Below, piece by piece: positions 5,568 through 62,290 of a stretch of 64,000 nucleotides of DNA. Each line of letters starts with the position of its first letter. Within the stretch, counting starts at the first letter, position 1. The position numbers and the translations under genes were made by a program. Under the pieces are notes generated by a model. The model did not search any database. It was not told where the DNA came from and was given only the letters and a program-made list of their open reading frames with translations. This DNA comes from Haliotis rubra (taxonomy: Eukaryota). Location: positions 930,684-994,683 of the forward strand of contig NW_025766975.1 in the NCBI RefSeq assembly GCF_003918875.1, written 5' to 3'.

Positions 5568-5898
<331 letters not shown>

Positions 5899-8800: not shown

Positions 8801-10035
8801 AGATCCCCGACCACTTTTTCATCCAAGTCGCATGTCAAAGAGACAAGAGAAGAAAACAGCCAATCAGGAAGCGTCTCTTTAAACGAGTGATCCCGAAAAT
8901 TACCGATCACTTAAACGGCAATAGTCGGGAGCTGTCGTGATAGTGTGGAAATTTAGGAGAAGGACACACTCGCTGTTTCCGATCCTTCCTCTGTAGGAAC
9001 CTCCCCATTTCCTGACTGGGGCTTTGGTTTAACACCGGCAGAAGGGGGATATCGATCTTAAATACAGTCACCTCTTATTACATTGATAACTAAAAGCTGT
9101 CATTTTGTTTTCGTCATCCGCGAATATGGACTCAAATTTGGCTAGTGATCTCTGAGAGAACGCAGTCAAGCGAAACGCGAGCGCCCTTAAAACTATTAGC
9201 CAAAATTGGACGTCATGAACTCTTAGCTTCTTAATAAAACGGTTTTAACAGTAAATTCATATCAGGTAGGAACCAAACCGCAGACATTCACAGACTACAT
9301 AATTTTATACTCCCATAAACTATGCACCATTGTAAACCGCTATGCTGCATCGAACCGTACAGCGGGCTCCCGTGGATTAATTGTCAATTGACGGTATTGC
9401 GTGGATCCATCGTGAATGAACTTGACATATGCCAGCTTCGTCGCGCCATATTGCGTGTGTGCATTATTCATTTAAAGTGGTATCTCCTCATGAAATATTT
9501 ACCTCATGATATTGTTGCAAGCCAGAACTCTGGCTATTGTCGTTGCCAACACTTCTACCAAAGACACGCTTCATGGACCTCGTCAGTGAACACAAGCGGT
9601 TAGACAGTCAGTATTCCGAAGGGAAATGTCAAATCAAAATGGCTTCCGTACCAGTTCTGCAGCCGCGATGGCGGAACTATCCAGATTGAACGTGACACGC
9701 ATGACTGGAACAACATATGTCTAACACAGGATCTTTTGGCCAACAATATTACATATGGTACATGTAACATAGATAATATCACGAACGGCGGGGATTAAAG
9801 TAGAAATTACGTACTGAGTGTCAACACAAGTACAATTCCATAACTAACACCGTTCTCCTTTTCATGGTCATTGTGCGAACATCTCACGCTCATCATTAAT
9901 TAATATAACAATGCATAGCACGTCACGGTGCCGTGTTATCAGAAGGCTGATTTCAGGTTACATCGCTGCTTGTTTTGTTTTCTGGGAAATGACTCTTTAA
10001 GATTTTTTTATTGAATTTTATTTTTTTTCCCACAG

Positions 10036-10124
10036 CGTTAACAGAACCAACGATAGACTACGGGTTTCAACGCCTCATGAAATTGGTACCACGCCATCCT
10101 GGGGATCCAGAGCGACTTCCCAAA
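10036..10124 (+). CDS. coe: COE/EBF exon encoding HLH helix 1: (A)[29 protein letters not shown]
   Basis: Polypyrimidine tract then cccacag|CG acceptor (AG 10034-10035); donor AAA|gtaaga (GT 10125-10126). Joins the phase-1 end of the previous exon to give GCG=Ala. Near-identical to the recalled EBF motif [30 protein letters not shown]. Confidence 0.9.
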
Positions 10125-11020
10125 GTAAGACAAGTTTTCAGGATGATATCATTCTTAGTCACTGGTCTCCGTCAACTCGCTCCCGCTAACAATGATATGC
10201 ACCGCTACCTTTCGAGTGCCTTTGAACATAATTCAGAAAGTTACACCCAATCAATAATTGTCATAGCTTTGGATGAGAACATCTGTTAGCAGGTAGCCAC
10301 TAACCCGTTCTCTTTTATTGCTCTAATTATCGGCGGTGGAGTTTATAGTGTTGCATTCACCAGTTCCTCCACTGTCGTGATAATGGATTAGCTATTTTCG
10401 ATGTGCAGATTTTGGTTGTTGGCTTTTATTACGTTTAAAATCTTGTTTGGTGATATTTGATCGAACAGATAAATATTGTATTTTTTTTAATTTGGTACTC
10501 TGTGAACTTTATCAAATCTATTTCGGTCCTTTCTGTTGGAACTTAGGGGTGAATATGTGAGACATTGAGAGGAACTGCTAGATGTATGCATGTAAGGCGG
10601 ACTCGGGCTTTCTGAGAAAATAAGTTCTTAACATGAATTACAGTAAAATCAATTTCATATAAGAGAAACACTTTCAGGTTAAACTGACGCAAGAAAAAAC
10701 CCAAACCATGTTTCTCTTTTTATCATGGAAATAGTGTTGAGATGTTTGAAAACGTCTTTTCGACATAATGATAAAACTGATAATTCCATGTTTTACTATC
10801 ATATTACATTGTTCAAATAGTTGAAGTTTCTACAGTTTGAGAAAAGACCAATCCTAAATCGGTGTTCTTGTGTACTCTGAAATTTTATTTCTTTGTCAAA
10901 TTACAATATATCAAAGAAAAGCCTATCAACATAATCATCGTCCCTTTTCTATGATTCAGTGACGTGTCAATGTTTGTTATTTGGTGATCGTTGTTATATA
11001 TGTATTTTTTCTCTCTCCAG

Positions 11021-11213
11021 GAAATAATCTTAAAACGTGCCGCGGATCTAGCCGAGGCACTCTACAGTATGCCCCGTAACCCCAACCAGCTATCACTCCC
11101 AGCCCCCAGGTCCCCCGCCATGAACAACACATCCCCAATGTCCGGATTCAACACCTACCCTGGTCAGCTAGCGGTCAGCGTGGCCGATACAGTCACCGGT
11201 CAGTGGGAAGAAG
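11021..11213 (+). CDS. coe: COE/EBF exon encoding HLH helix 2 and linker: [64 protein letters not shown]
   Basis: Acceptor ctctctccag|GAA (AG 11019-11020); donor GAAG|gttggt (GT 11214-11215); phase 0 in, phase 1 out. Matches the recalled EBF motif [23 protein letters not shown] ... SGQLAVNVSEAS. Only ONE helix-2 copy follows ERLPK (vertebrate EBFs have two). Confidence 0.9.
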
Positions 11214-12028
11214 GTTGGTGACGCTCCAACCTTCTTAGTTACATCGCCTCTGAGTTGCCTCCCTTTGCTCTAACCAGAGTGGCCTCCCTTGGCTTCCTGA
11301 AATACTTGACTGTCTTTCTGAGTTGATAGACGTAGCGATGGATGTGTTGGAGCATTTTGAGAATATTTCATTACAATGCGTGCATGTGCCTTCTTACAAA
11401 TCATAAAAATATGTAAAAATGCAATCTGTAAATGACAGCTGTTTAGATGCATGGACAGTAATGGCTAGAATCTCCTGGGATAATGACTCAGTAAAGGTTC
11501 ATGCATGTTATGTACACATTTTATTGATAATAATGAACAACAGTATTTGCAAAGTGGATGTAGTCGACCTTTGTAGCTTCTGTGCTTCTTTGTAAAGCAT
11601 GTACTATTGTCATTTACACTTGTTTCTGTTATATATGGGGTACGAGTGGCCCGAACATCTAAAAGTGCCACAGTTTCTGTGCAGAGATGCCAGAAACCTG
11701 TGATCGTGGTTCGAATCCCGATTCGCTCCGATTGTGTTTCTAAGTTTGGTAGCACCATACCCATGCTCTTTGGTATCACCAAAGTGGTAAAACGTCTGAG
11801 ACAGATAAAGCTGACAAGCCGTGATGGAACTGGAATACTGTTCAAAACGACGTTAAACCCAACTCACCCAGTGGCATATCCATTGCATGTTCAGAAATGA
11901 ACTAAAGGCAACATAAAATTTCCGTTTTCATAATGCCACCTTTACTTATTTCAAGTTTGCTTAAATCTGATTAGAAGCTGATTGATGCTCTTTGGTCCTC
12001 TTCATTTTCAAAGAACTGTTTCTTCCAG

Positions 12029-12175
12029 GCTACAACAGAAGCCAGAGTTCCAGCGTATCGCCCCGTGGTTACGGGTCCAACGGATCCACGCCACACAGTA
12101 CAAACAGTGGAAGCTACGCAGGCACGCCGGGAATGAACGGGTATCACGGAAGTGCTGGTGCGCTAGGCAATATGG
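12029..12175 (+). CDS. coe: COE/EBF exon, Ser/Gly/Thr-rich transactivation region: GYNRSQSSSVSPRGYGSNGSTPHSTNSGSYAGTPGMNGYHGSAGALGNM(G)
   Basis: Acceptor tttcttccag|GC (AG 12027-12028); strong donor ATGG|gtaagt (GT 12176-12177); phase 1 in and phase 1 out. Matches the recalled EBF1 segment GFTRNSSSVSPHGY...SMNGYGSAAMSNLG. Confidence 0.85.
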
Positions 12176-13852
12176 GTAAGTTGTGACGTCACATACGCTT
12201 CCTCGTCATTGTCATTTCGTTGCTGCTGGCTTACTTCATATCCTTCAACCATTGTGGCACTGGTGTTTATTTATGATATTTTGCACTTTATTGCATGATC
12301 TGAAATACTTGATATCATGTTATTCATACGCAATACATCAATATACTAACATTCACGTTCTGACGTTTTTTTTCTGTAAAAATGAAAGGTAGTGTTTTTT
12401 TCCTGATCGTTTAGACTATAAGTTAATTTCAAATGAAAATTGTCAAACGACCAAATGACCTATCATAACAATTTTCAAGAATCGAAATACCGTTAATTGT
12501 TGTCATTGATGTTTCTGCCGACATTGATATACCATTACGTTAAAGCGCGTAGGGTAAATGCTGCTATATAACGGCACAATTTTTAGAGTAATTCCCATTT
12601 CTACCTGAAGAATTCAAAATCCACAACGATGAGACGGGACAATAATACTGCGACCATGCCACTGTTTACCTCTGCGCTTGTGGGAGTTGAGAACAGTTAT
12701 AATCAATGATCTCAACGCTACTTCGGAATAAACGTTAGACAGCCGTCAATCTCGGTTAAATTTGCCGTCATATTATGCATTGTGTTGGCTATAGGAATGA
12801 AGCCGGGGGTTTACTCTACTCTATATTCGCTACAGTGGAACAATACATCATTTGGAACCGATGGTATTTGTGGACACACAATATTTTGTAACAATAAGTG
12901 CAAAATTACCTTTAGTAGAAAATCAACACTACCGTAGTCGGCTCCGCTAATTGTTTTAGCCAAACAAATGCCGCATAATTCATAGGGAAGAAGCTTGATT
13001 TTGGTGAAGGGATTGGAGCTGGGATCCATTGTGTTGGGCCGGAGCGCCAGTTTCTCCGAGATCTCGCGGGACCCGCTTCTAATAGGTTGATCAACAACTT
13101 GTTAGCCTGGCTAAGGCGTCATGGGACCTCGTGATGAACAAATCATGCACACACCGTTTCAGACATTCCAATCTATAGTTCACTGATAATTCACAAGCAA
13201 ATAGACGTGGAATATGTGCAAGCTCCTCTCTGCGACCTCACTGAACATTTCGCGCACGTGGTTTGAACTCAATCGCATTTGGCGGGAAATCGATGGGCCG
13301 CCATCTTAAGCCCAACTTGAGTTCGTGTCGCTTGAAAGTACGTTAATCCTAACTCGTCTGCCCATAATCATATGTGACTCTCGGTAGCAAGCATAACGCG
13401 CACATGGCGCGAGGATAATGCGAAGATCAATTTACAATTGTAGCTCAATTTCCGCCCGAAACGGCCGGTTATTGGAGAATTAAACAGTGACTTTTACTAC
13501 GCTGTGTTTATTTCCGAAAAGGAAACACAACGTTGGCCGATAGCTGTAATATTTAGACTCTGCTTAACTGTAACAAAAGCTACGCCATTATGTCGCGGCA
13601 AACCCGTTACCAAGGGTACACAGCGGATGGAAGTGTTTGTTGCCGGATACAGAGCCGTTAATACGCGTTAAGGCAGTAAAACAATTCTTTATCCTTTATT
13701 GATGCCCTGCTGCGATAGCTGTACTAGTGCCTAATGACTCGAATCATCCATGCGTGAAACAAATCAATTCATCCATCCTAGATATCATACCCAATCTAAA
13801 TTAACAAACAGAATTCAGACAAGATCTGTTATTTTTTTTTGTTTCTCTTCAG

Positions 13853-13897
13853 GTTTAGATCATTTTCTCAGAGATGAAGCAGGAAGATTGGGAGCTG
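13853..13897 (+). CDS. coe: Candidate 45-nt cassette micro-exon of COE (GLDHFLRDEAGRLGA in phase 1)
   Basis: T-rich tract + ttctcttcag|GT acceptor (AG 13851-13852); donor GCTG|gtaaga (GT 13898-13899). Length 45 is a multiple of 3. Only the phase-1 frame is open, which is exactly the phase left by the upstream exon. No homology support. Confidence 0.45.
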
Positions 13898-14146
13898 GTA
13901 AGACTTTTTTATAATTTTTATTCGTGTATTTTTTGCATTTCTTCAGTCCGTTTTTATTTTGCTTTCTAATTTCATTTCTATCTGTCTCTCTTGTATTTCG
14001 GAAATGGTCTTTTCGTTTTTTAAATTTAAAGGTCAGTAGGTATTGACAGATATGTGTGACGACAATTGGGAAGGGGGTGGAGCAAGACGTCCATTCCTGG
14101 CCGTTTTCGGTTTGTTTATTTTTCTTTTTTGTTTTATGTTCTGCAG

Positions 14147-14355
14147 TTGCTACGTCTCACTCGCCTCCCCATCAGTTCTCCGCCCCCTCGGGCCTGTCAG
14201 GGACTTGTGCCCCCGGGATTTTCTCTTTCTCACCTGCCAATATGATCACGGCGGTCAAACAGAAAAGTGCCTTTGCACCTGTCGTTCGTGCGCCGAGCCC
14301 GCCCCCTCCCCTTCCCGGCATTCAGTGCGGCTGGGTTTCACATCCGCTTTTACAC
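14147..14355 (+). CDS. coe: COE/EBF C-terminal exon: (V)[69 protein letters not shown]; 3' boundary uncertain (donor CAC|gttagt at 14356, or read-through to TAA at 14377-14379)
   Basis: Acceptor ttatgttctgcag|TT (AG 14145-14146), in frame with the phase-1 upstream exons. Contains the recalled conserved EBF C-terminal motif [26 protein letters not shown]. An aataaa at 14575-14580 could serve a transcript ending here. Confidence 0.7.
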
Positions 14356-14667
14356 GTTAGTAGACATTGCTTAATATAAAGGTCCTTATTGGTAATGCAT
14401 TATTTCTGATGGCGTCCTACCTTGGTTTGACGACATATGAATGTAGTTTCATAGTATTAAATTCAGTAGATTGTATATGTTGTCTGCTTTTATTGCGCTT
14501 GCTTTGTCGTTGTTTCTTGTAAACTTTGATTTATACTTTTTTTTCTATAAATGTTTTTACTTCTTCAAATGTATTAATAAATGTAAATACAATGTATACA
14601 ATATTGTATCTGAGCGGATGAATAGTATTTTGAAAAGGAAAGTAAAGAGTTGTTTATTTCATTACAG

Positions 14668-14774
14668 GAATGAGCAGCATAGTAGCGTCGCCGTTTACGA
14701 GCGTCAACCCATTCGCTCTGCCCACGTGCAACTCACAATCATACAGCAGCTCCATCGTGTCTCCTGCAAAATGA
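14668..14774 (+). CDS. coe: Candidate terminal COE exon: (G)MSSIVASPFTSVNPFALPTCNSQSYSSSIVSPAK then stop TGA at 14772-14774, read in phase 1
   Basis: Acceptor tttcattacag|GA (AG 14666-14667). In phase 1 it gives an open Ser/Pro-rich tail resembling the recalled EBF C-terminus (..LQAISGMIVPPM). Joinable in frame from the exons ending at 12175 or 13897, but not from 14355 with the donors visible. Confidence 0.5.
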
Positions 14775-14981
14775 TTGGTTGGAATTCACAGTGTAGGTCC
14801 GGACTGAATACCTCAACATTACATGATTGGACGGAGTGTTAAACCGGAAGCGCAGTGTGCGTTGATTGAATTGGATGGTTTATGCACATTGTGGGCAAAG
14901 ACGATATCAGTGCTAACATAACACGAACAATTCGAGGAAAAATGACCATACGAAACAAGACACAGCGCTTCCTGCCCGGAG

Positions 14982-14987
14982 AATAAA
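14982..14987 (+). promoter_or_regulatory. Possible polyadenylation signal AATAAA ~210 nt downstream of the 14774 stop
   Basis: Canonical hexamer in the right position relative to the candidate terminal exon. Such hexamers are frequent in AT-rich DNA. Confidence 0.2.
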
Positions 14988-15212
14988 TTCTACTACACTC
15001 TAGGAAGTACGATACGTCGGGAACGATATCGGCTTCCATTCCTCCTCACAAACATGCCCATTAGGAAGGTGTCTGGGACGGGACATGAAAACTGCGCACG
15101 TGATCATAGAAGTGATCCTTGTTTAGTCTGAACGTGATCGTTCAGGATGTTTGCTCTAGCCTGAGTGTGTTTCTCTGTTTCACAGACTTCTTGTTTACTC
15201 GTGTCTTGCCAA

Positions 15213-15298
15213 GGGAGATAACTTGTCTCATGGGAGATAACTTTGTCTCAAGGGAGATAACTTTGTCTCATGGGAGATAACCCTGCCTCGTGGGAAAT
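15213..15298. repeat. Minisatellite, ~19-20 bp unit gggagataacttgtctca(t/a) x ~4.5
   Basis: Direct reading of the tandem copies. Confidence 0.8.
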
Positions 15299-16728
15299 AT
15301 ACCTGAGGGTAACCCTTTCTCATTGTAAATACTCATTTCCTAGTCCCAAAGCTCAGTGGACATTTTGCTCACCAAATGACATAAAACCCAAGAGATTATT
15401 TTTGTTGGTCTTTACGTTACCCTTCAGTCACGTGTCTTTGTTTCTGATTGTAATTGTTTTGCGACGTGTTCTGGCGTGATGTAGATTTATTTATTCGTAG
15501 CGAGTAAAACAAAACGGGACATTTGAGCACATATATATAATTGTACATATTACGATAAGTTCAGTATTCGAAAACAGTAATTTCACAAAATAGATTTGAC
15601 GCTACGAAACCCCCGAATAATTTATGGACAAAAATATGCATAATAAGGCAGCATTAATGCTCTCAAAGAGAGATCCACCAACGCTTACCCTACTCTCACG
15701 TTTCATATTGTTAACATAATACTTTATATATAATTCTTGCAAAAATAAATACTAACGAATAATTTATGGGTATCAATGTACCCTGCCCCGAAGTCCCATC
15801 TCAGGTGAAACCGAAGTGCTGGAGGCATGGATTCTGTATATTGAGTGTCAAGTCTTACGTGGTTATGTTACATCGTATCTTATTGCATTTTGATCTCATA
15901 ATAGAGTATCGCCTGTTCTTATGTACTTAATTGCATACTGTATACAATACTCAAAAAGTATTACAAGGGCTGTGGAAAGACACCTTATCGACGTAGGTTT
16001 TATTTTTGTACATTTTTAAAACATACCTCCTCACTTTAAGTTTATTCTCTGCGAATGAATTTCTCCTTTTCTCGGAATATCCACCGATATCTAGTCATTT
16101 TCTAGTCAATCTAGTTGATTTTGCCGGCAATATTTCTTTGACATTGGCGTCTGATTCGCCCGATAGTTTCGCATGGTTCTAGTCGCGACATGTCTGATCT
16201 AGTCCCGCCATGTCTATTCTAGTCCCGCCGTGTCTATTCTAGTCATTGCTGTTCAAATGATCTCTGCAACATCACAGTTTGACCATAGTATGGGTTCCGA
16301 TCTTTCCTTGCACAACGCACGTGGGATACTGTACTTATGTATTACAAAGCATACTCTATAATCTCGCGTGCGTTCTTTCATTTAACCAAATCATTCTGTC
16401 AAAGTACTATTTATTACTGAAAATATTGTTTTTATATTGAAAGTTTGATTATGATTAAAATGTTTTTCTTCCATATCTGTTTGATGTTATTCCTGGTGTT
16501 CTAGAAGTCTGCTTTACAAGTAAAGGTCACCTCCGTTGTTATATCATTTTACGTTTTATGTCAATTTGGCCAGATGTAGAAGCAAAATAGGTGCTTTAAA
16601 AATACAGAAGAAAGCACTTGAAAGTTGGATGAATAAATAAAAGAGATTTGAAATATACATAGTGTCAATCGAAAACTAAAGTATCCTTATTTTAGATTTG
16701 TACGACCTGAAAGACAGCCTCCTTCGTA

Positions 16729-16846
16729 CAATGGGGTAGTCTGTTTGCTTCGTGGTTAAAGTGTTTGCTCGATTCTTCACTGCCTTTATATTCCTGGAAT
16801 ATAGCTAAAAGCGGCATAAAAGTACACTCACTCACTTTGTAGAAAA
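16729..16846 (+). mobile_element. Degenerate SINE family A copy
   Basis: ggggtagtctgtttgcttcgtggttaaagtgtttgctcg...gctaaaagcggcataaaagtacactcactcac. Confidence 0.35.
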
Positions 16847-17106
16847 TTAAACACATAATCGAGCCTAAGAAGAATGTTTTGCAGTAGTTACTGCACAAGG
16901 TTTCTATCTTGCACACAGAAAACATTACTTGGTGAACTTCAAACACACTGACAAGATATCAAACCACAGTTATAATAAATACTGTACAAAACAATTAGGG
17001 ACAATGAATATTTTGGAATATTTTTGTTGTGAAGACATCATTTCATATCTATATCTCAACAAATGTTTATAATCCCTAACTGTATTCAACGTATGTCTGT
17101 TTAGAT

Positions 17107-18660
17107 ATGCATACAACAGTAAAGTAGCATACAATTACATACAGTTATACTAATGGCCATCGGTTGTCTACAGCGTTCACCATGTAACTGCTCGAGTCTA
17201 TACTACACACGTAGCGTGAATACAACAACCAGTAGAACTGCAATGATTGCCTGTATACAATGATACCACCACCGGTTGTACACCATATGAGAATTCTGGC
17301 TAATCCTTTAACGGCTTGTACGAACACAACCCACTGGACAGTACAACACCAAACATGACCCGCGTTTACAATGGTCAGGGGTTTACAATGATACCACCAC
17401 CGGTTGTACAGTATATGAGAATTCTGGCTGATCCTTTAACGGCTTGAACGAACACAACCCACTGGGCAGTACAACGCCAAAAATAACCCGCGTTTACAAT
17501 GGTCAGGGGTATACAATAATATCATCACTGGTTGTACAGTATAAAGAAATTCTGCCTATTCCTATAACGGCTGGTGCATATACAACCCACTGGACAGTAC
17601 AACGTGAAACATGACCCGCGTTTACTATGGCCAGGGGTATACAATAATACCACCAATGGTTGTACAGTATATGGGAATTCTGCCTACTCTTATAACGGCT
17701 TGTACGAACACAACCCACTGGACAGTACAACGTGAAACATGACCCGCGTTTACAATGGCCAGGGGTATACAATAATATCACTTCTGGTTGTACAGTATAA
17801 AGAAATTCTGCCTACTCCTATAACGGCTTGTGCATATACAACCTACTGGACAGTACAACGTGAAACATGACCCGCGTTTACAATGGCCAGGGGTATACAA
17901 TAATATCACTTCTGGTTGTACAGTATAAAGAAATTCTGCCTACTCCTATAACGGCTTGTGCATATACAACCTACTGGACAGTACAACGTGAAACATGACC
18001 CGCGTTTACAATGGCCAGGGGTATACAATAATATCACCACTGGTTGTACAGTATAAAGAAATTCTGCCTACTCCTATAACGGCTTGTGCATATACAACCC
18101 ACTGGACAGTACAACGTGAAACATGACCCGCGTTTACAATGGTCATTTGTATACAATAATATCACCACTGGGTGTACAGTATAAAGGAATTCTGCCTACT
18201 CCTATAACGGCTTGCACGAACACAACCCACTCGACAGTATAACGTCTAACATGACCCGCGTTTACAATGCTCAGGTGTATACAATAATACCACAACAGGT
18301 TGTTCAGTATATGGGAATTCTGCCTACTCCTATAAAGGCTCGTGCATATACAACCCACTCGACAGTACAACGTCTAAAATGACCTGCGTTTACAATGATC
18401 TGGTGTATATAATGCATACAATAGTAAAGTAGCATACAATTACATACAGTAATGCTAATCGCCATCGGTTGTCTACAGCGTTCCATGTAACTTCTCGAGT
18501 CTATACTACACACGTGGTGTGAATACAACAACCAGTAGAACTGCAATGATTGCCTGTATACAATAATACTACCTCCGGTTGTACAGTATATGAGACTTCT
18601 GGCAGATCCTTTAACGGCTTGTACGAACACAATGGTCAGGTGTATATAATAAAACTACCA
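17107..18660. repeat. Satellite with ~126-bp monomer (~9-10 copies, 17230-18400) embedded in a ~1.3-kb higher-order duplication (17107-17340 repeated at 18411-18640)
   Basis: Monomer gtatacaataataccaccactggttgtacagtataaagaaattctgcctactcctataacggcttgtgcatatacaacccactggacagtacaacgtgaaacatgacccgcgtttacaatggccagggg recurs with 85-100% identity. The flank atgcatacaacagtaaagtagcatacaattacatacag is present at both ends. Confidence 0.85.
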
Positions 18661-19592: not shown

Positions 19593-19984
19593 TGAAATAC
19601 GTGATTCAATGAAATATAATATTTATAATACACGCATACTCACCTTCGTCAGACACTGAAGTACTTATCAATTACCCGTCTAAGTTAACTAATTTGTCTT
19701 CATACTGTCTTCTAACAAGGTACTGAATACCCGCCTTAATTAAACCAGAACATGCAAATATTCGTCTCCATGACACACTGAACAGAATAAATATCACATT
19801 GAAACAATGCCATGATCAAACAGCCTGTAATTAGACTGAAATATTAATTAGATCCACCATATCTCAATATATATCAAATACTCGATCTGTGCATACGCCA
19901 TGAACACTGACATGAATACAACATGCTGACATGGTAATAAGTAAAATTAAAGGGCACAAGACGAATGAAGTCAAGACTGTTGTA

Positions 19985-20712
19985 ACTGCAGGGACATCCC
20001 TATATTACATCATTCAAACTGTTGTAACTGCAGGGACATGCCTATATTACATCATTCAAACTGTTGTAACTGCAGGGACATGCCTATATTACATCATTCA
20101 AACTGTTGTAACTGCAGGGACATGCCATCATTCAAACTGTTTAACATGCCTATGTAACTGCAGGGACATGCCTATATTACATCATTCAAACTGTTGTAAC
20201 TGCAGGGACATGCCTATATTACATCATTCAAACTGTTGTAACTGCAGGGACATGCCTATATTACATCATTCAAACTGTTGTAACTGCAGGGACATGCCTA
20301 TATTATATTACATTCATTCAAACTACAAACTGTTGTAACTGCAGGGACATGCCTATATTACATCATTCAAACTGTTGTAACTGCAGGGACATGCCTATAT
20401 TACATCATTCAAACTGTTGTAACTGCAGGGGCCTATATTACATCATTCAAACTGTTGTAACTGCAGGGACATGCCTATATTACATCATTCAAACTGTTGT
20501 AACTGCTGGGACATGCCTATATTACATCATTCAAACTGTTGTAACTGCAGGGACATGCCTATATTACATCATTCAAACTGTTGTAACTGCAGGGACATGC
20601 CTATATTACATCATTCAAACTGTTGTAACTGCAGGGACATGCCTATATTACATCATTCAAACTGTTGTAACTGCAGGGACATGCCTATATTACATCATTC
20701 AAACTGTTGTCT
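19985..20712. repeat. Minisatellite, 42-bp unit actgttgtaactgcagggacatgcctatattacatcattcaa x ~17 (contains a PstI site per unit)
   Basis: Near-perfect tandem copies. The unit length is divisible by 3, which explains the repetitive ORFs 19931-20768. Confidence 0.9.
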
Positions 20713-38034: not shown

Positions 38035-39700
38035 TGTATCATCTCTCCTATTGTTATGCATCTCCAACCTTGTGTTATCTCTCCAGTCCAACCCTGTCAT
38101 TGTTTGCCTGATTGTTATGTATATCTCTCCTTATTGTTATCTCCTATTGTTATGTATTATCTCTGCCTGTATTATCTCTCCTATTGTTATGTATTATCTC
38201 TCCTATTGTTATGTATTATCTCTCCTCCTATTGTTATGTATTATCTCTCCTATTGTTATGTATCATCTCTCCTATTGTTATGTATCATATCTCTCCTATT
38301 GTTATTGTATGTATCATCTCCCTATTGTTATGTATTATCTCTCCTATTGTTATGTATCATCTCCTATTGTTATGTATCATCTCTCCTATTGTTATGTATC
38401 ATCTCTCTCTCCTATTGTTATGTATCTCCTATTGTTATTGTTATCTCTCCTATTGTTATGTATCATCTCTCCTATTGTTATGTATCATCTCTCCTATTGT
38501 TATGTATCATCTCTCCTATTGTTTGTATCATCTATCTCTCCTATTGTTATGTATTATTATCTCCTATTGTTATGTATCATCTCTCCCTGTATTGTTATGT
38601 ATCATCTCCTATTGTTATGTATCATCTCTCCTATTATGTATCATCTTATGTATGTATCTCTCCTATTGTTATGTATCATCTCTCCTATTGTTATGTATCA
38701 TCTCTCCTATTGTTATGTATCATCTCTCCTATTGTTATGTATCATCTCTCCTATTGTTATGTATTATCTCTCCTATTGTTATGTATCATCTCTCCTATTG
38801 TTATGTATTATCTCTCCTATTGTTATGTATTATCTCTCCTATTGTTATGTATCATCTCTCCTATTGTTATGTTATCTCTTATTATCATCTCTCCTATTGT
38901 TATGTATCATCTCTCCTATTGTTATTGTTATGTATCTCTCCTATTGTTATGTATCATCTCTCCTATTGTTATGTATTATCTCTATTGTTTGTTATGTATC
39001 ATCTCTATTGTTATGTATCATCTCTCCCTATTATTGTTATGTATGTATCTCTCCTATTATTATGTATCATCTCTCCTATTGTATCATCTCTCCTATTGTT
39101 ATGTATTGTCTCTCCTATTGTTATGTATTATCTCTCCTATTGTTATGTATCATCTCTCCTATTGTTATGTATATTCTTATTGTTATCTCCTCCTATTGTT
39201 ATGTATCATCTCTCCTATTGTTATGTATCATCTCCTATTGTTATGTATCATCTCTCCCTATTGTTATGTATCATCTCTCCTATTGTTATGTATCATCTCC
39301 TATTGTTATGTATCATCTCTCCTATTGTTATGTATCATCTCTCCTATTGTTATGTATCATCTCTCCTATTGTTATGTATTATCTCTCCTAGTTTCTTATG
39401 TATTATCTCCCCTAGTGTTATGTATTCTTTCCCTAGTATTGTGTTTCCCCTCCCCCTTAATGTTGTGTATTTTATGTATTATTTCCCTAATGTTGTGCGT
39501 TCTTCCCTTAGTGTTATGTATTCTTCCCTTAGTGTTATGTATTCTCCCCTTATGGTATGCATTCTAAGCATTTTTCACATACCGTTATGCATTCTTCCCA
39601 TAGTGTATGTATTCTGAGTATTTCCCTCTAGTGTTATGTATGTTCCCCCTAGTGTTGTGTACTCTTTCCCTAGTGTTGTGTATTCTTCCCCTAGTGCTAG
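38035..39700. repeat. Giant minisatellite array 1: 22-bp unit cctattgttatgtatcatctct x ~65, decaying into a cccctagtgttatgtattctt variant at the 3' end
   Basis: Tandem copies read directly. The unit has no stop codon in any forward frame, producing the 450-510 aa artefact ORFs 38018-39617. Confidence 0.95.
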
Positions 39701-40297: not shown

Positions 40298-40671
40298 CAA
40301 ATGAAAGAAACAACCTTGAGTGGTCACTTGCTCTCCAAAGACATAACAGGGTACATTTGCGTCTGCTCCAAATCAGTAACAACAACAGTGGGAATCGGCA
40401 CTGAACCAAGATCATCATATCTATCAGAAACAGCTCTAAGCATTTCTTCACACAAATATGCCTGATAATCAAAACATGCTAATCAGCTTATCTCACTGGC
40501 CTCTGTCACGAAGACATGATAATTTACTTATCTCACTGGGTTCTTGGTGAAAAAGGGTAGCAATAACATATTAAAATGGGATTTTGTCTTATGTTGGCCA
40601 TTTTGGTGTGGGATTTTGTCCAGAGAAATTTTGTTCAATGGGATTTTGTCTGGGTGGGATTTTGTCTGTCC

Positions 40672-43600
40672 CCCCAGTGCTATATATCCTTCCCCTAGTG
40701 TTATGTATTTTCCCCTTGTGTTATGCACTCTTCCTCTATTGCTATATATTCTTCCCCTAGTATTATGTATTTTCTCCCTTATGTTATATATGCTTCCCCA
40801 GTGCTATATATTTTCCCCCTAGTGTTGTTTATTTACTCTGTTGTGTTATGTTCTCTTCCCCTAGTGCTATATATTCTTCCCCTAGTGTTGTTTATTTACT
40901 CTGTTGTGTTATGTACTCTTCCCCTAGTGCTATATATTCTTCCCCTAGTGTTGTTCATTTACTCTGTTGTGTTATGTACTCTTCCCCTAGTGCTATATAT
41001 TCTTCCCCTAGTGTTGTTTATAGTTGTTTATTTACTCTGTTGTGTTATTTCTCTTCCCCTTTTGCTATATATTCTTCCCCTAGTGTTGTTCATTTACTCT
41101 GTTGTGTTATGTACTCTTCCCCTATTGCTATATATATATATTCTTCCCCTAGTGTTGTTTATTTACTCTGTTGTGTGATGTACTCTTCCCCTAGTGCTAT
41201 ATATTCTTCCCCTAGTGTTGTTCATTTACTCTGTTGTGTGATGTACTCTTCCCCTAGTGCTATATACTCTTCCCCCATTGCTATGTATTCTTCCCCTAGT
41301 GTTGTTTATTTACTCTGTTGTGTGATGTACTCTTCCCCTAGTGCTATATATATATTCTTCCCCTAGTGTTGTTCATTTACTCTGTTGTGTGATGTACTCT
41401 TCCCCTATTGCTATATACTCTTCCCCCATTGCTATGTATTCTTCCCCTAGTGTTGTTTATTTACTCTGTTGTGTGATGTACTCTTCCCCTAGTGCTATAT
41501 ACTCTTCCCCTAGTGTTGTATATTTACTCTGTTGTGTGATGTACTCTTCCCCTATTGCTATATACTCTTCCCCCATTGCTATGTATTCTTCCCCTAGTGT
41601 TGTTTATTTACTCTGTTGTGTGATGTACTCTTCCCCTATTGCTATATACTCTTCCCCCATTGCTATGTATTCTTCCCCTAGTGTTGTTTATTTACTCTGT
41701 TGTGTGATGTACTCTTCCCCTATTGCTATATACTCTTCCCTCATTGCTATGTATTCTTCCCCTAGTGTTGTATATTTACTCTGTTGTGTGATGTACTCTT
41801 CCCCTATTGCTATATACTCTTCCCCATTGCTATGTATTCTTCCCCTAGTGTTGTTTATTTACTCTGTTGTGTGATGTACTCTTCCCCTATTGCTATATAC
41901 TCTTCCCCATTGCTATGTATTCTTCCCCTAGTGTTGTATATTTACTCTGTTGTGTGATGTACTCTTCCCCTATTGCTATATATTCTTCCCCTAGTGTTGT
42001 ATATTAACTCTGTTGTGTGATGTACTCTTCCCCTAGTGCTATATACTCTTCCCCCATTGCTATGTATTCTTCCCCTAGTGTTGTTTATTTACTCTGTTGT
42101 GTTATGTACTCTTCCCCTATTGCTATATATTCTTCCCCTAGTGTTGTATATTTACTCTGTTGTGTGACTGTACTCTTCCCCTAGTACTATATATTCTTCC
42201 CCTAGTGTTGTTCATTTACTCTGTTGTGTGATGTACTCTTCCCCTAGTGCTATATATATATTCTTCCCCTAGTGTTGTTTATTTACTCTGTTGTGTGATG
42301 TACTCTGTTGTGTGATGTACTCTCTTCCCCTATTGCTATATACTCTTTCCCCATTGCTCTTCCCCTAGTGCTATATATTCTTCCCCTAGTGTTGTTTATT
42401 TATTTCTGTTGTGTGATGTACTCTTCCCCTATTGCTATATATTCTTCCCCTAGTGTTGTTTATTTACTCTGTTGTGTGATGTCTTCTCATTTCCCCTAGT
42501 GCCCCATATATATATTCTTCCCCTAGTGTTGTTTATTTACTCTGTTGTGTGATGTACTCTTCCCCTAGTGCTATATATTCTTCCCCTAGTGTTGTTTATT
42601 TACTCTGTTGTGTGATGTACTCTTCCCCCATTGCTATATATTCTTCCCCTAGTGTTGTTTATTTACTCTGTTGTGTGATGTACTCTTCCCCTATTGCTAT
42701 ATACTCTTTCCCCATTGCTATGTATTCTTCCCCTAGTGTTGTTTATTTACTCTGTTGTGTGATGTACTCTTCCCCTATTGCTATATATTCTTTCCCCCTA
42801 GTGTGATGTTATATATATTAACCCTAGTGTTGTGTGATGTACTCTTCCCCTAGTTGCTATGTACTCTTCCCCATTGCTATGTATTCTTCCCCTAGTGTTG
42901 TTTATTTACTCTGTTGTGTGACTGTACTCTTCCCCTAGTACTATATATTCTTCCCCTAGTGTTGTTTATTTACTCTGTTGTGTGATGTACTCTTCCCCTA
43001 GTGCTATATATATATTCTTCCCCTAGTGTTGTTCATTTACTCTGTTGTGTGATGTACTCTTCCCCTATTGCTATATACTCTTCCCCCATTGCTATGTATT
43101 CTTCCCCTAGTGTTGTTTATTTACTCTGTTGTGTGATGATGCTATTACTCTTCCCTAGTGCTATATATTCTTCTCCTAGTGTTGTTCATTTTCTTTCCCC
43201 TCTGTTGTGTGATGTACTCTTCCCCTATTGCTATATATTCTTCCCTAGTGTTGTATATTTACTCTGTTATTCTTTATGCCTTTCTGTTATGCATTTCTTT
43301 CCCTAGTGTATGCATTGTATCCTCAGTGTTGTGTATTCTTCCCCTGGTGATATGCGTTCTTAGATAAGGTGTGTTGTATTCATACTCTTTCCCCTAGAGC
43401 TATATATTCTTCCCCTAGTGCATTGTTATATATTCTTCCCTAGTGCTATATATTCTTCCCCTAGTGTGTTAGTGTCGTGTATTTTCTGCTTGTGTTATGT
43501 ACTCTTCCCCTAGTGCTATATATTCTTCGCCTTGTTTTATGTATTTTCTCCCTTGTGTTATGCATTTCTTTCTCTAGCGTTATGCATTGTACCCTCAGTG

Positions 43601-43975
43601 TTGTGTATTCTTCCCCTGGTGATATGCGTTCTTAGATAAGGTGTGTTGTATTCGTCCCCTAGAGCTATATATTCTTCCCCTAGTGCTATATATTCTTCCC
43701 CTAGTGCAATATATTCTTCCCCTAGTGTTGTGTATTTTCTGCTTGTGTTATGTACTCTTCCCCTAGTGCTATATATTCTTCGCCTTGTTTTATGTATTTT
43801 CTCCCTTGTGTTATGCATTTCTTTCTCTAGCGTTATGCATTGTACCCTAAGTGTTGTGTATTCTTCCCCTGGTGCTCTGCATTCGTAAATAAGGTGTGTT
43901 GTATTCTTCCCCTAGTGCTATATAGTCCTTCTGTTCTTCTGTAATGTATTCATTGCCAAGTGTTGTGTACTCTTA
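40672..43975. repeat. Giant minisatellite array 2: ~63-bp compound unit (tcttcccctagtgctatatat + tcttcccctagtgttgtttatttac + tctgttgtgtgatgtac) x ~45, with a ~260-bp higher-order variant duplicated at 43290-43820
   Basis: Direct reading. Shares the cccctagtg(c/t)tat motif with array 1, in the same orientation. Confidence 0.95.
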
Positions 43976-57064: not shown

Positions 57065-58101
57065 ATAGGAACATGAACATACACTGTTGCGTTATACCAC
57101 CCACCTGACATCCTCTCCAACCCTATCTGAATCACGTTTTGTGTTATTTTTACAAGATCGAAGTTTCGCCAGGCGTTCCTTTAAGACAGGTGTTGGTTCT
57201 TTCTCTGAAACAGTTGATCTGAAGCATATTGAAGGGATCACAGTACTGTATATGTTATCACTATTACCTGGGAAAACATGGCCACTGAACGAACCCATCA
57301 ACTTCGCATAGTTGCCCCTCTTAGGCACGTCATCATCACCAGATATATCCTGCTTATGATCCTTGATGTTTCAACAGTACAGTACACGTTGGTTTCACCA
57401 GAATGGTAAATGCCAATGACGTGCATCACTCTCGTCTTTGCCAAATCCAAGTCACATTACTTTTCATATTTGCTTTGAATTCAACTCACTCACCCTGAAC
57501 GGCGTGGGAATCAAAACGACGTGTTACTGTATTTGTTGTTATACTTCGCCTTCACGTAATATTTCAGGACAATGAGAAGTCTCTGTTGTGACTATTTGTG
57601 GAATGTGACTGTGAACTAGCACTACATGACTCACCACAGCAAAGCCAAGGAACAGATACTTTTATTTATTTGCACAGAGCCCAGTCTCAATAATATCATC
57701 ATGGACAACCGCTGGTCAAGCGGTCCTTTCACAATATTTATCCCCGTGAGAAGGTCCGCGGATTGCAAGCCCAAACAGACTAGTTATGAAACTGGACGCC
57801 GGCATGAAGCGTCGAGAGAACGCACCTGCAGAACCAGTCCCGAGGCTAGGGGTGTTGAAGAGCGAGCCGGCTTTCATTTAGGGTCATTTAAAGAGGAGTT
57901 TGTTAAATTGAGTTACCGTTTTCGGATATTTTGGTCATCGCCACCAGATGACCTCCGGCTGTGGTTTTGCCACAATCTTTGTTGTGTCAGGTTTTAGAAG
58001 GACGTCTTAAATAGTTGCTAATGGTGGAGAGACAACTACCCGATATGGGTTGATATTTGAAACAGACTTAATTGAAATACTTTGCATATGTCATTCCCTC
58101 T

Positions 58102-59934: not shown

Positions 59935-61790
59935 GTAGTATTATAAAAAGTAGTAGTGGCAGAGGAGTATGTGACCACTAGTAGTGGCAGTGGTAGCAGT
60001 AGTATGTGACCACTAGTAGTGGCAGGGGTAGCAGTAGTATGTGACCACTAGTAGTGGCAGAGTTAGCAGTAGTATGTGACCACTAGTAGTGGCAGAGGTA
60101 GCAGTAGTATGTGACCACTAGTAGTAGCAGAGTTAGCAGTGTATGTGACCACCAGTAGTGGCACTAGCAGTAGTGGCAGCAGTAGTATGTGAGCAGTAGG
60201 CAGAGGTAGCAGTAGTATGTGACCACCTAGTAGTGGCAGCAGGGTAGCAGTAGTATGTGACCACTAGTATTGGCAGAGTTAGCAGTAGTATGTGACCACC
60301 AGTAGTGGCAGTAGCAGTGGCATAGCAGTGACCACATTGGCAGAGTAGCAGTAGTATGTTAGCAGTGGCAGGGGTAGCAGTAGTATGTGACCACTAGTAG
60401 TGGCAGTATGTGGTAGCAGTAGTATGTGACCACTAGTAGTGGCAGCAGTATATGTGCAGTGGCAGAGGTATGTGACCACCAGTAGTGGCAGAGATAGCAG
60501 TAGTATGTGCTAGTAGTGGCAGTAGCAGTAGTATGTGACCACTAGTAGTGGCAGAGATAGCAGTAGTATGTAGACAGAGTAGCAGTAGTGACCACTAGTA
60601 GTGGCAGAGGTAGCAGTAGTATGTGACCACTAGTAGTGGCAGAGGTAGCAGTAGTATGTGACCACTAGTAGTGGCAGAGATAGCAGTAGTATGTGACCAC
60701 TAGTAGTGGCAGAGTTAGCAGTAGTATGTGACCACTAGTAGTGGCAGAGGTAGCAGTAGTATGTGACCACTAGTAGTGGCAGAGACCACTAGTAGCAGTA
60801 GTATGTGACCACTAGTAGAGGCAGAGATAGCAGTATATGTGACCACTAGTAGTGGCAGAGGTAGCAGTAGTATGTGACCACCAGTAGTGGCAGAGGTAGC
60901 AGTAGTATGTGACCACTAGTAGTGGCAGAGGTAGCAGTGGCAGAGATAGCAGTAGTATGTGACCACTAGTAGTGATAGCAGTAGTATGTGACCACTAGTA
61001 GTGGCAGAGAGATAGCAGTAGCATGTGACCACTAGTAGTGGCAGCAGTATGTGACCACTAGTAGTGGCAGAGATAGCAGTATGTGACCACTAGTGGCAGA
61101 GTGTAGTATGTGCAGAGATAGCAGTAGTATGTGACCACTAGTAGTGGCAGAGTTAGCAGTAGTATGTGACCACTAGTAGTGGCAGAGGTAGCAGTAGTAT
61201 GTGACCACTAGTAGTGGCAGAGGTAGCAGTAGCATGTGACCACTAGTAGTGGCAGAGTTAGCAGTAGTATGTGACCACTAGTAGTGGCAGAGGTAGCAGT
61301 AGCAGTAGTCATGTGACCACCTAGTAGTGGCAGAGGTAGCAGTAGTATGTGACCAGCAGTAGTGGCAGTGGCAGAGGTAGCAGTAGCATGTGACCACTAG
61401 TAGTGGCAGAGGTGGCAGATGTGACCACCTAGTAGTGGCAGAGGTAGTAGTATGTGTGTGACCAGTGGCAGAGGTAGCAGTAGTATGTGACCACTAGTAG
61501 TGGCAGAGGTAGTATGTGACCACTAGTAGTGGCAGAGGTAGCAGTAGTATGTGACCACTAGTAGTGGCAGAGGTAGCAGTAGTATGTGACCACTAGTAGT
61601 GGCAGAGGTAGCAGTAGTATGTGACCACTAGTAGTGGCAGAGGTAGCAGTAGTATGTGACCACTAGTAGTGGCAGAGGTAGCAGTAGTATGTGACCACTA
61701 GTAGTGGCAGAGGTAGCAGTAGTATGTGACCACTAGTAGTGGCAGAGGTAGCAGTAGTATGTGACCACTAGTAGTGGCAGACGTAAACGA
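59935..61790. repeat. Minisatellite, 35-bp unit gtagcagtagtatgtgaccactagtagtggcagag x ~53 (SpeI site per unit)
   Basis: Period 35 verified between 61566 and 61601. Many near-perfect copies. Confidence 0.95.
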
Positions 61791-62027: not shown

Positions 62028-62071
<44 letters not shown>

Positions 62072-62120
62072 CATTAGTAGTGGTTGTGGTAGTAGCAGTA
62101 GTAGTAGTAGTAGTAGCAGT

Positions 62121-62152
<32 letters not shown>

Positions 62153-62290
62153 TAGTAGTAGCATTAGTAGTGGTGGTGGTAGTAGCAGTAGTAGTAGTAG
62201 TAGTAGTAGTAGCAGTAGCTAGCAGCAGCAGCAGTAGCAGAAGCAACAGCAGCAGTAGTAGTAGTAGTAGTAGTAGTAGCAGCAGTAGTT
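61920..62290. repeat. Imperfect (AGT)n/(AGC)n trinucleotide array
   Basis: agtagtagtagtagtagcagtagcagcagcagcagc... Source of the poly-Ser, poly-Leu and poly-Val/Thr artefact ORFs 61808-62354. Confidence 0.9.

Follow-up and report, generated by a model that had tools for sequence, protein, structure and literature searches.

Inclusion or skipping of a single 209-nt exon probably gives the COE/EBF/Collier transcription-factor gene of Haliotis rubra one of two conserved protein tails. The stretch of DNA that we analysed (the window, 64,000 nt of contig NW_025766975.1) contains a region that, judged by sequence similarity, is the 3′ end of a mollusc COE gene, in which the Tyr/Ser-rich exon D is followed by a 45-nt micro-exon, exon E and exon F (Table 1). 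With exon E skipped, a phase-1 donor at 12175 or 13897 would be joined to exon F, and the protein would end in ...GNM, optionally G-LDHFLRDEAGRLGA, and then G-MSSIVASPFTSVNPFALPTCNSQSYSSSIVSPAK. With exon E included, exon F would be entered in phase 0, where GAA TGA encodes Glu and a stop, and the remainder of exon F would become 3′ untranslated region. Regulated use or skipping of exon E, which has a weak GTTAGT donor, would in this way toggle the frame of a shared last exon. The micro-exon would be frame-neutral and could be combined with either tail. Because the stop of the E-type mRNA would lie within the last exon, this mRNA is not expected to trigger exon-junction-dependent decay. Both routes are presumably used in Haliotis rubra, and the two tails may differ in function.

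The gene was recognized with tblastn, using a human EBF1 sequence as query, which located a chain of plus-strand COE exons at about 5.5, 10.0, 11.0, 12.0 and 14.2 kb of the window. The spliced product matched the Pfam family COE1_HLH over the whole profile (PF16423; E = 9.5e-31). In a search against a database of 5.8 billion proteins, the best matches were the gastropod COE proteins of Elysia crispata (86% identity), Bradybaena (84%) and Candidula (84%), and none was identical to the product of the window. From the exon that encodes the end of the IPT region onwards, identity to mollusc COE proteins was 84–87% once one frameshifting G had been removed. This G belongs to a run of six at 5618-5623, where the conserved frame requires five; the tblastn match of the exon breaks into two frames at 5620-5621, and deletion of one G from the run brings the conserved peptide PPRHIPGVVEVTL back in frame. 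As the remaining gene is intact, the assembly most likely has this homopolymer one base too long.

A single helix-2 exon lies between 10124 and 12029, which is the non-vertebrate (invertebrate) type; single versus duplicated helix 2 separates non-vertebrate from vertebrate genes (Daburon et al. 2008, PMC2394523). This exon, which starts at 11021, offers two phase-1 donors 15 nt apart (ACCG/GTCAGT after 11198 and GAAG/GTTGGT after 11213), and the junctions 11198/11199 and 11213/11214 form a possible alternative 5′ splice-site pair. Use of the distal donor adds QWEE, which is present in most mollusc COE proteins and absent from the Aplysia model. Exons for the COE DNA-binding domain (zinc knuckle) were not found in the window by tblastn with human EBF1, and presumably lie upstream of window position 1.

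Exon D shows the GY...SY...NGY pattern, matching the Tyr-rich region of EBF1. In mouse EBF1, this disordered region (residues about 420–520, including Y470, Y481, Y491 and Y515) is involved in BRG1 recruitment and condensates, and the disordered, Tyr-dependent C-terminal domain recruits BRG1 and opens chromatin (PMC10903943). Either tail would come after the Tyr-rich disordered region within the COE C-terminal domain. The switch would hence alter what follows the BRG1-recruiting region, and the isoforms could differ in partners or activity.

Table 1 Features at the 3′ end of the COE gene in the window, and exon E in orthologous loci
Feature	Locus	Positions	Strand	Length (nt)	Entry phase	Exit phase	Remarks
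COE exon, end of IPT/TIG region	Window	5569-5695	+			1	tblastn and splice sites
COE exon, helix 1 and linker	Window	10036-10124	+			0	tblastn, splice sites and Pfam COE1_HLH
COE exon, single helix 2 and start of C-terminal domain	Window	11021-11213 (or to 11198)	+			1	
Exon D, Tyr/Ser-rich	Window	12029-12175	+	147	1	1	GYNRSQSSSVSPRGYGSNGSTPHS...NGYHGSAGALGNM
Micro-exon, candidate cassette	Window	13853-13897	+	45	1	1	Reads (G)LDHFLRDEAGRLGA
Exon E	Window	14147-14355	+	209	1	0	Conserved block and GWVSHPLLH tail
Exon E donor GTTAGTA	Window	14356-14362	+				T at +3; weaker than neighbouring donors
AATAAA	Window	14576-14581	+				Inside the 312-nt E–F intron
Exon F, terminal coding exon	Window	14668-14774	+		1		Starts GAATGAG; phase 1 reads (G)MSSIVASPFTSVNPFALPTCNSQSYSSSIVSPAK, stop TGA 14772-14774
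Exon E	Aplysia (L001)	9045-9332		288		1	
Exon E	Logan species (L002)			221		0	
Exon E	Littorina (L004)			182		0	
Exon E	Tubulanus (L005)			227		0	
Exon E	Bivalve (L007)					0	

We compared this gene end with orthologous loci of Aplysia (L001), the Logan species (L002), Elysia marginata (L003), Littorina (L004), the nemertean Tubulanus (L005), Bradybaena (L006) and a bivalve (L007). An initial annotation of the window had the exon that ends at 12175 leave phase 1, and this is correct: its 147 nt leave one base, G, at the donor TGG/GTAAGT. The same annotation read 13853-13897, 14147-14355 and 14668-14774 as phase-1 COE exons, and, taken together, gastropod, bivalve and nemertean orthologues match all three. 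In tblastn on the orthologous loci, the peptides of exon E, the micro-exon and exon F returned E values of 1e-5 to 1e-19, about 1e-6 to 1e-7, and 1e-13 to 1e-17, respectively. It is because of this homology, and not because of open frames, that we accept the exons as real. Exon E is open throughout in two frames (ORFs 14043-14360 and 14056-14379), of which only one has homologues; 35 codons stay open by chance about once in five times, and open frames alone are therefore not beyond chance.

Exon E follows the acceptor ...ttctgcag, reads V-ATSHSPP...GWVSHPLLH in phase 1 and exits at CAC/GTTAGT. Five other genomes have an orthologue of it upstream of exon F, after exon D or the micro-exon, and a search with the contiguous exon E translation retrieved further ones. 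All 13 exon E peptides that we aligned share K-x-x-SAFAPV, and nearly all of them have the tryptophan of the tail, the insect TGWHHLAVQ ends included; of a block of 25 residues defined in vertebrates, 23 are kept in the window. Sequence lengths vary, and those of the window, the Logan species, Littorina and Tubulanus (209, 221, 182 and 227 nt) all equal 2 modulo 3. In all five phase-0 genomes (these four and bivalve L007), a GW.H.... tail directly precedes the donor GTTAGTA. The donor is identical to the base in six genomes, the sixth being Aplysia, in which exon E is strongly diverged and has the tail GWMAPALNP. Other Logan ORFs run from the exon E tail into an in-frame 'VS' (GTNAGY), the mark of phase 0.

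Listing all GT and GC dinucleotides within 14147-14400, we obtained a score of 3.7 for the exon E donor at 14356 compared with 7–12 for the donors of neighbouring exons. The phase-1 GTs of the region, at 14207, 14267, 14288 and 14360, scored -2.5 to 1.8. The initial annotation saw no donor in 14147-14361 that leaves phase 1; this holds for plausible donors, but not for these four weak GTs.

Exon E was not found in Bradybaena (L006, 36836-37264), where only about 380 nt separate the micro-exon from exon F, or in Elysia marginata (L003, 9512-11042). It appears to have been lost, or to have become unrecognizable, in these two heterobranchs. The E tail would therefore be dispensable there.

The start of exon F serves both frames. 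Entered in phase 1 from 12175 or 13897, the exon yields G-MSSIVASPF...SPAK and a stop; entered in phase 0, it yields Glu (GAA, 14668-14670) and a stop (TGA, 14671-14673). The initial annotation had ruled out an in-frame join between 14355 and 14668-14774. Splicing of the two out of frame is possible, however, and would give Glu and the stop. GAATGAG opens exon F in the window, the Logan species, Littorina, Tubulanus and bivalve L007, and in all five species with a Met-Ser start the Ser codon is AGY, never TCN. In Aplysia, exon F (at 10607) starts with GAATGGG, which replaces Ser by Gly and removes the phase-0 stop. Aplysia exon E ends in phase 1 with a T, and at the junction T plus GA is again a stop. 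The phase change of the Aplysia exon may compensate for the lost phase-0 stop.

An E tail could also be made without exon F. Exon E would then be a composite terminal exon, with the 14356 donor read through and the transcript polyadenylated after the AATAAA at 14576; we regard this as unlikely. The stop at 14377-14379 on which the initial annotation based such an end is correctly placed, and the AATAAA is present too, at 14576-14581 rather than at 14575. At least one AATAAA occurs in each of the five orthologous E–F introns examined. However, the motif is frequent in these AT-rich introns, and at a density of 0.75 per kb on the plus strand one copy per 312-nt intron is unremarkable. A terminal exon would have no need of the GTTAGTA that six species keep to the base. 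In a comparison of the window, the Logan species, Littorina, Tubulanus and Aplysia, intron read-through would add 1–66 unconserved residues, whereas the E-to-F splice adds 0–1 residue, its product stopping within one codon. Bivalve isoforms, moreover, end in ...NE and carry no read-through residues; by analogy with five other genomes, their final Glu would be encoded by the GAA that opens the shared last exon. We therefore favour the E-to-F splice, since its donor is invariant and it always meets a stop within one codon, over the read-through to 14377-14379 put forward in the initial annotation. The AATAAA at 14576-14581 could be an alternative polyadenylation signal, and intronic polyadenylation may provide a parallel route to E-type termination.

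A single in-frame chain that places both tails in one protein is far less probable. It would use the weak phase-1 donor at 14360 (TTA/GTAGAC) and read ...HPLLH-V-R-MSSIVASPF.... The GT at 14360-14361 does leave phase 1, A plus GA would supply an in-frame Arg, and this dinucleotide is the second GT of GTTAGTA in all six species. Against this, the site scores -2.5, well below 14356 and the donors of the other exons, the protostome proteins retrieved contain no ...VRMSS..., and the same site in Aplysia would yield a stop.

We give slightly less credence still to a one-base homopolymer error in 14190-14320, under which the real gene would be a linear D-(micro)-E-F chain with exons E and F in frame. 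The idea of such a hidden indel, raised in the initial annotation, is tempting because exon E is open in two frames and because an apparent one-base insertion does occur elsewhere in the assembly, in the G-run at 5618-5623 of a conserved exon. The second open frame of exon E would exit in phase 1, and in sea-urchin and vertebrate COE proteins the E block shares its frame with the F block. Yet the assembled frame opens exon E with VxxSHSPP and closes it with GW.H, as the orthologues do, and the GW.H tail with a phase-0 GTTAGTA is common to four other genomes, with several Logan ORFs in agreement. The alternative frame of exon E has no homologue, and two compensating errors would be required. 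The phase clash between exons E and F is best read as biology and not as sequencing error; a gene predictor that expects one linear frame would wrongly 'repair' exon E or lose an exon. Hardly credible, too, is the idea that exon E or the micro-exon survives here as a relic and has dropped out of splicing. Exon E is missing from Bradybaena and Elysia, or cannot be recognized there, and it has diverged strongly in Aplysia and Littorina; in the window, however, it keeps the 23 vertebrate-block residues, intact splice sites and the conserved tail. The length, frame and splice sites of the micro-exon are likewise preserved, with differences from other gastropods that are mostly synonymous.

Alternative inclusion of exon E agrees with what is recorded in relatives. 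A gene structure with two tails is ordinary and already annotated in related species, which bears out the proposal of alternative C-terminal isoforms in the initial annotation and answers its call for a comparison with the COE genes of related species: the tails are conserved across phyla, and automated RefSeq models assign both to a single gene, as alternative isoforms, in Mercenaria mercenaria (E-type, XP_053407173/175; F-type, XP_053407174) and in Mya arenaria (E-type, XP_052772859/860; F-type, XP_052772861). E-type proteins end in ...GLQAGWAHTFYNE and a stop in Mercenaria X1/X3 and Ruditapes X1/X3, and in ...GLQAGWTHTFYNE and a stop in Mya X1/X2. From the same genes as these E-type isoforms, Mercenaria X2 and Mya X3 end in the F-type ...GNMGMSGLVGSPF...K and a stop. 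As in the window, the bivalve isoforms continue after ...GNM with either KSAFAPV...GW.H....E or GMS..V.SPF..NPFAL..C......SP.K before the stop. Unlike the window, bivalve COE proteins show no LDHFLRDEA micro-exon, and the Mercenaria and Ruditapes isoforms lack one 10-residue part of exon E, a part that has diverged in Mya.

Beyond these genes, exon D is joined straight to exon F in proteins of Littorina, Mya, Dreissena, Tegillarca and the nemertean Tubulanus (...GNM/GV-GMS...K and a stop), and F-type ends occur in many protostome COE proteins. Insects and crustaceans have both ends, ...EKSAFAPV...TGWHHLAVQ and ...SPFATMNPFALPTCNSQSY...K, each followed by a stop. A donor that lies more proximally puts the E block in frame with the F block in sea urchins, vertebrates and one beetle model. 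Vertebrate EBF1–4 and sea-urchin COE resemble the window in having a homologous E block, an (A/G)MSG.V.PP motif and a phase-1 intron that precedes the last exon. By way of Logan read-through ORFs, the vertebrate end ...LQA(I/M)SG(M/L)(I/V)VPPM can be lined up with the beginning of exon F. By contrast with the window, the deuterostome equivalent of exon E exits in phase 1 and one protein carries both blocks. The single vertebrate tail (...KSAFAPVVR...SGMIVPPM) thus unites two blocks of which a lophotrochozoan protein has either one or the other.

The arrangement also recalls Drosophila collier/knot, whose COE proteins reportedly differ only at the C terminus through alternative 3′ splicing, as Crozatier et al. 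are said to have described in 1996. A literature search turned up no earlier account of 3′ isoforms of invertebrate COE genes. Daburon et al. (2008, PMC2394523) treat exon structure and helix-2 duplication, and report for the C-terminal domain only 'scattered blocks of similarity'.

Three further C-terminal models stand apart from this comparison. In a Nucella lapillus model (P0187), one frame leads from the micro-exon into a truncated exon E and, after 13 extra residues (GQLNIAKREGVIA), on into exon F; the model is either a real third isoform type or the product of a frame forced by the predictor, and as the frame may have been so forced we did not count the model as evidence. The cephalopod C terminus GTWPMYGF and the JGI-model end GWSHRYPTFTF were rejected because we read them as translation past the preceding donor into the intron.

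What the present comparison adds is modest, namely that the frame-switch layout is deeply conserved between Mollusca and Nemertea. A bolder reading, to which we lean less than halfway, is that the E–F layout is a very old maintained switch of Mollusca and Nemertea, perhaps of all protostomes, with selection holding the end of the E-type protein right after the GW.H tail. The parts of such a switch would be the asymmetrical exon E, the invariant weak GTTAGTA donor and the TGA hidden in the Met-Ser sequence ATGAGY. Maintenance is suggested because the Ser codon is AGY in five of five species and because the Aplysia stop has been rebuilt as T/GA. If this is true, the two tails would represent two COE activities, and deuterostomes would have lost this arrangement or fused both blocks instead.

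The micro-exon has canonical splice sites (acceptor ...ctcttcag, donor CTG/GTAAGA). Its length of 45 nt and its AG/GT flanks are identical in five gastropods (the window, Aplysia, Elysia, Littorina and Bradybaena). In nine of ten species pairs the differing bases lie mostly in synonymous codons (for the window and Aplysia, 13 in synonymous codon pairs and 4 in non-synonymous ones); the introns beside the micro-exon are unalignable, with identity equal to background. Protein models of Aplysia, Elysia, Bradybaena, Candidula and Nucella include the micro-exon. The RefSeq model of Littorina skips it, and the exon is intact in that genome (L004:53146-53190). Inclusion and skipping are thus recorded in different species only, and no one species shows both.

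In proteins of Elysia, Aplysia and Bradybaena, exon D, the micro-exon and exon F follow one another (...GNM-GLDHFLRDEASRIGA-GM(S/G)GIVGSPF...PAK and a stop). Gastropod models in which the 45-nt micro-exon leads straight into exon F (Aplysia californica XP_035825982, Elysia spp., Bradybaena similaris and Candidula unifasciata) are 84–86% identical to the window over the conserved part, and unlike these gastropods the window has a far better conserved exon E. The micro-exon was not found in the Tubulanus locus (L005) or in the locus of the Logan species (L002). In Tubulanus, reading past the annotated end of exon D (L005, 41559-41597) gives ...GATSDFLHGAAS and then GTAAGT. The peptide GATSDFLHGAAS is faintly like LDHFLRDEA, which could be a hint of how the micro-exon originated, or chance.

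Several minor observations concern the surroundings of the switch and the rest of the window. The exon F acceptor of Littorina (L004, about 57688-57695) is a tandem cag/cag (NAGNAG), which would permit a 3-nt variant. Rfam gave no match in window positions 11000-17000, and no meaningful minus-strand ORF lies in 13500-14838; the sole minus-strand ORF of the scanned range (66 aa, 14839-15039) is downstream of exon F. Long 'ORFs' at 38.0-39.6 kb were rejected as genes, being repeat artefacts of tandem arrays. Arrays of this kind occupy 17253-18413, 19971-20710, 38168-39425, 40671-43874, 59966-61785 and 62028-62289, with units of 128 bp (×9), 42 bp (×17), 22 bp (×58), 21 bp (×149), 35 bp (×52) and (AGT)n. 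The arrays at 38-44 kb account for the strong strand skew there.
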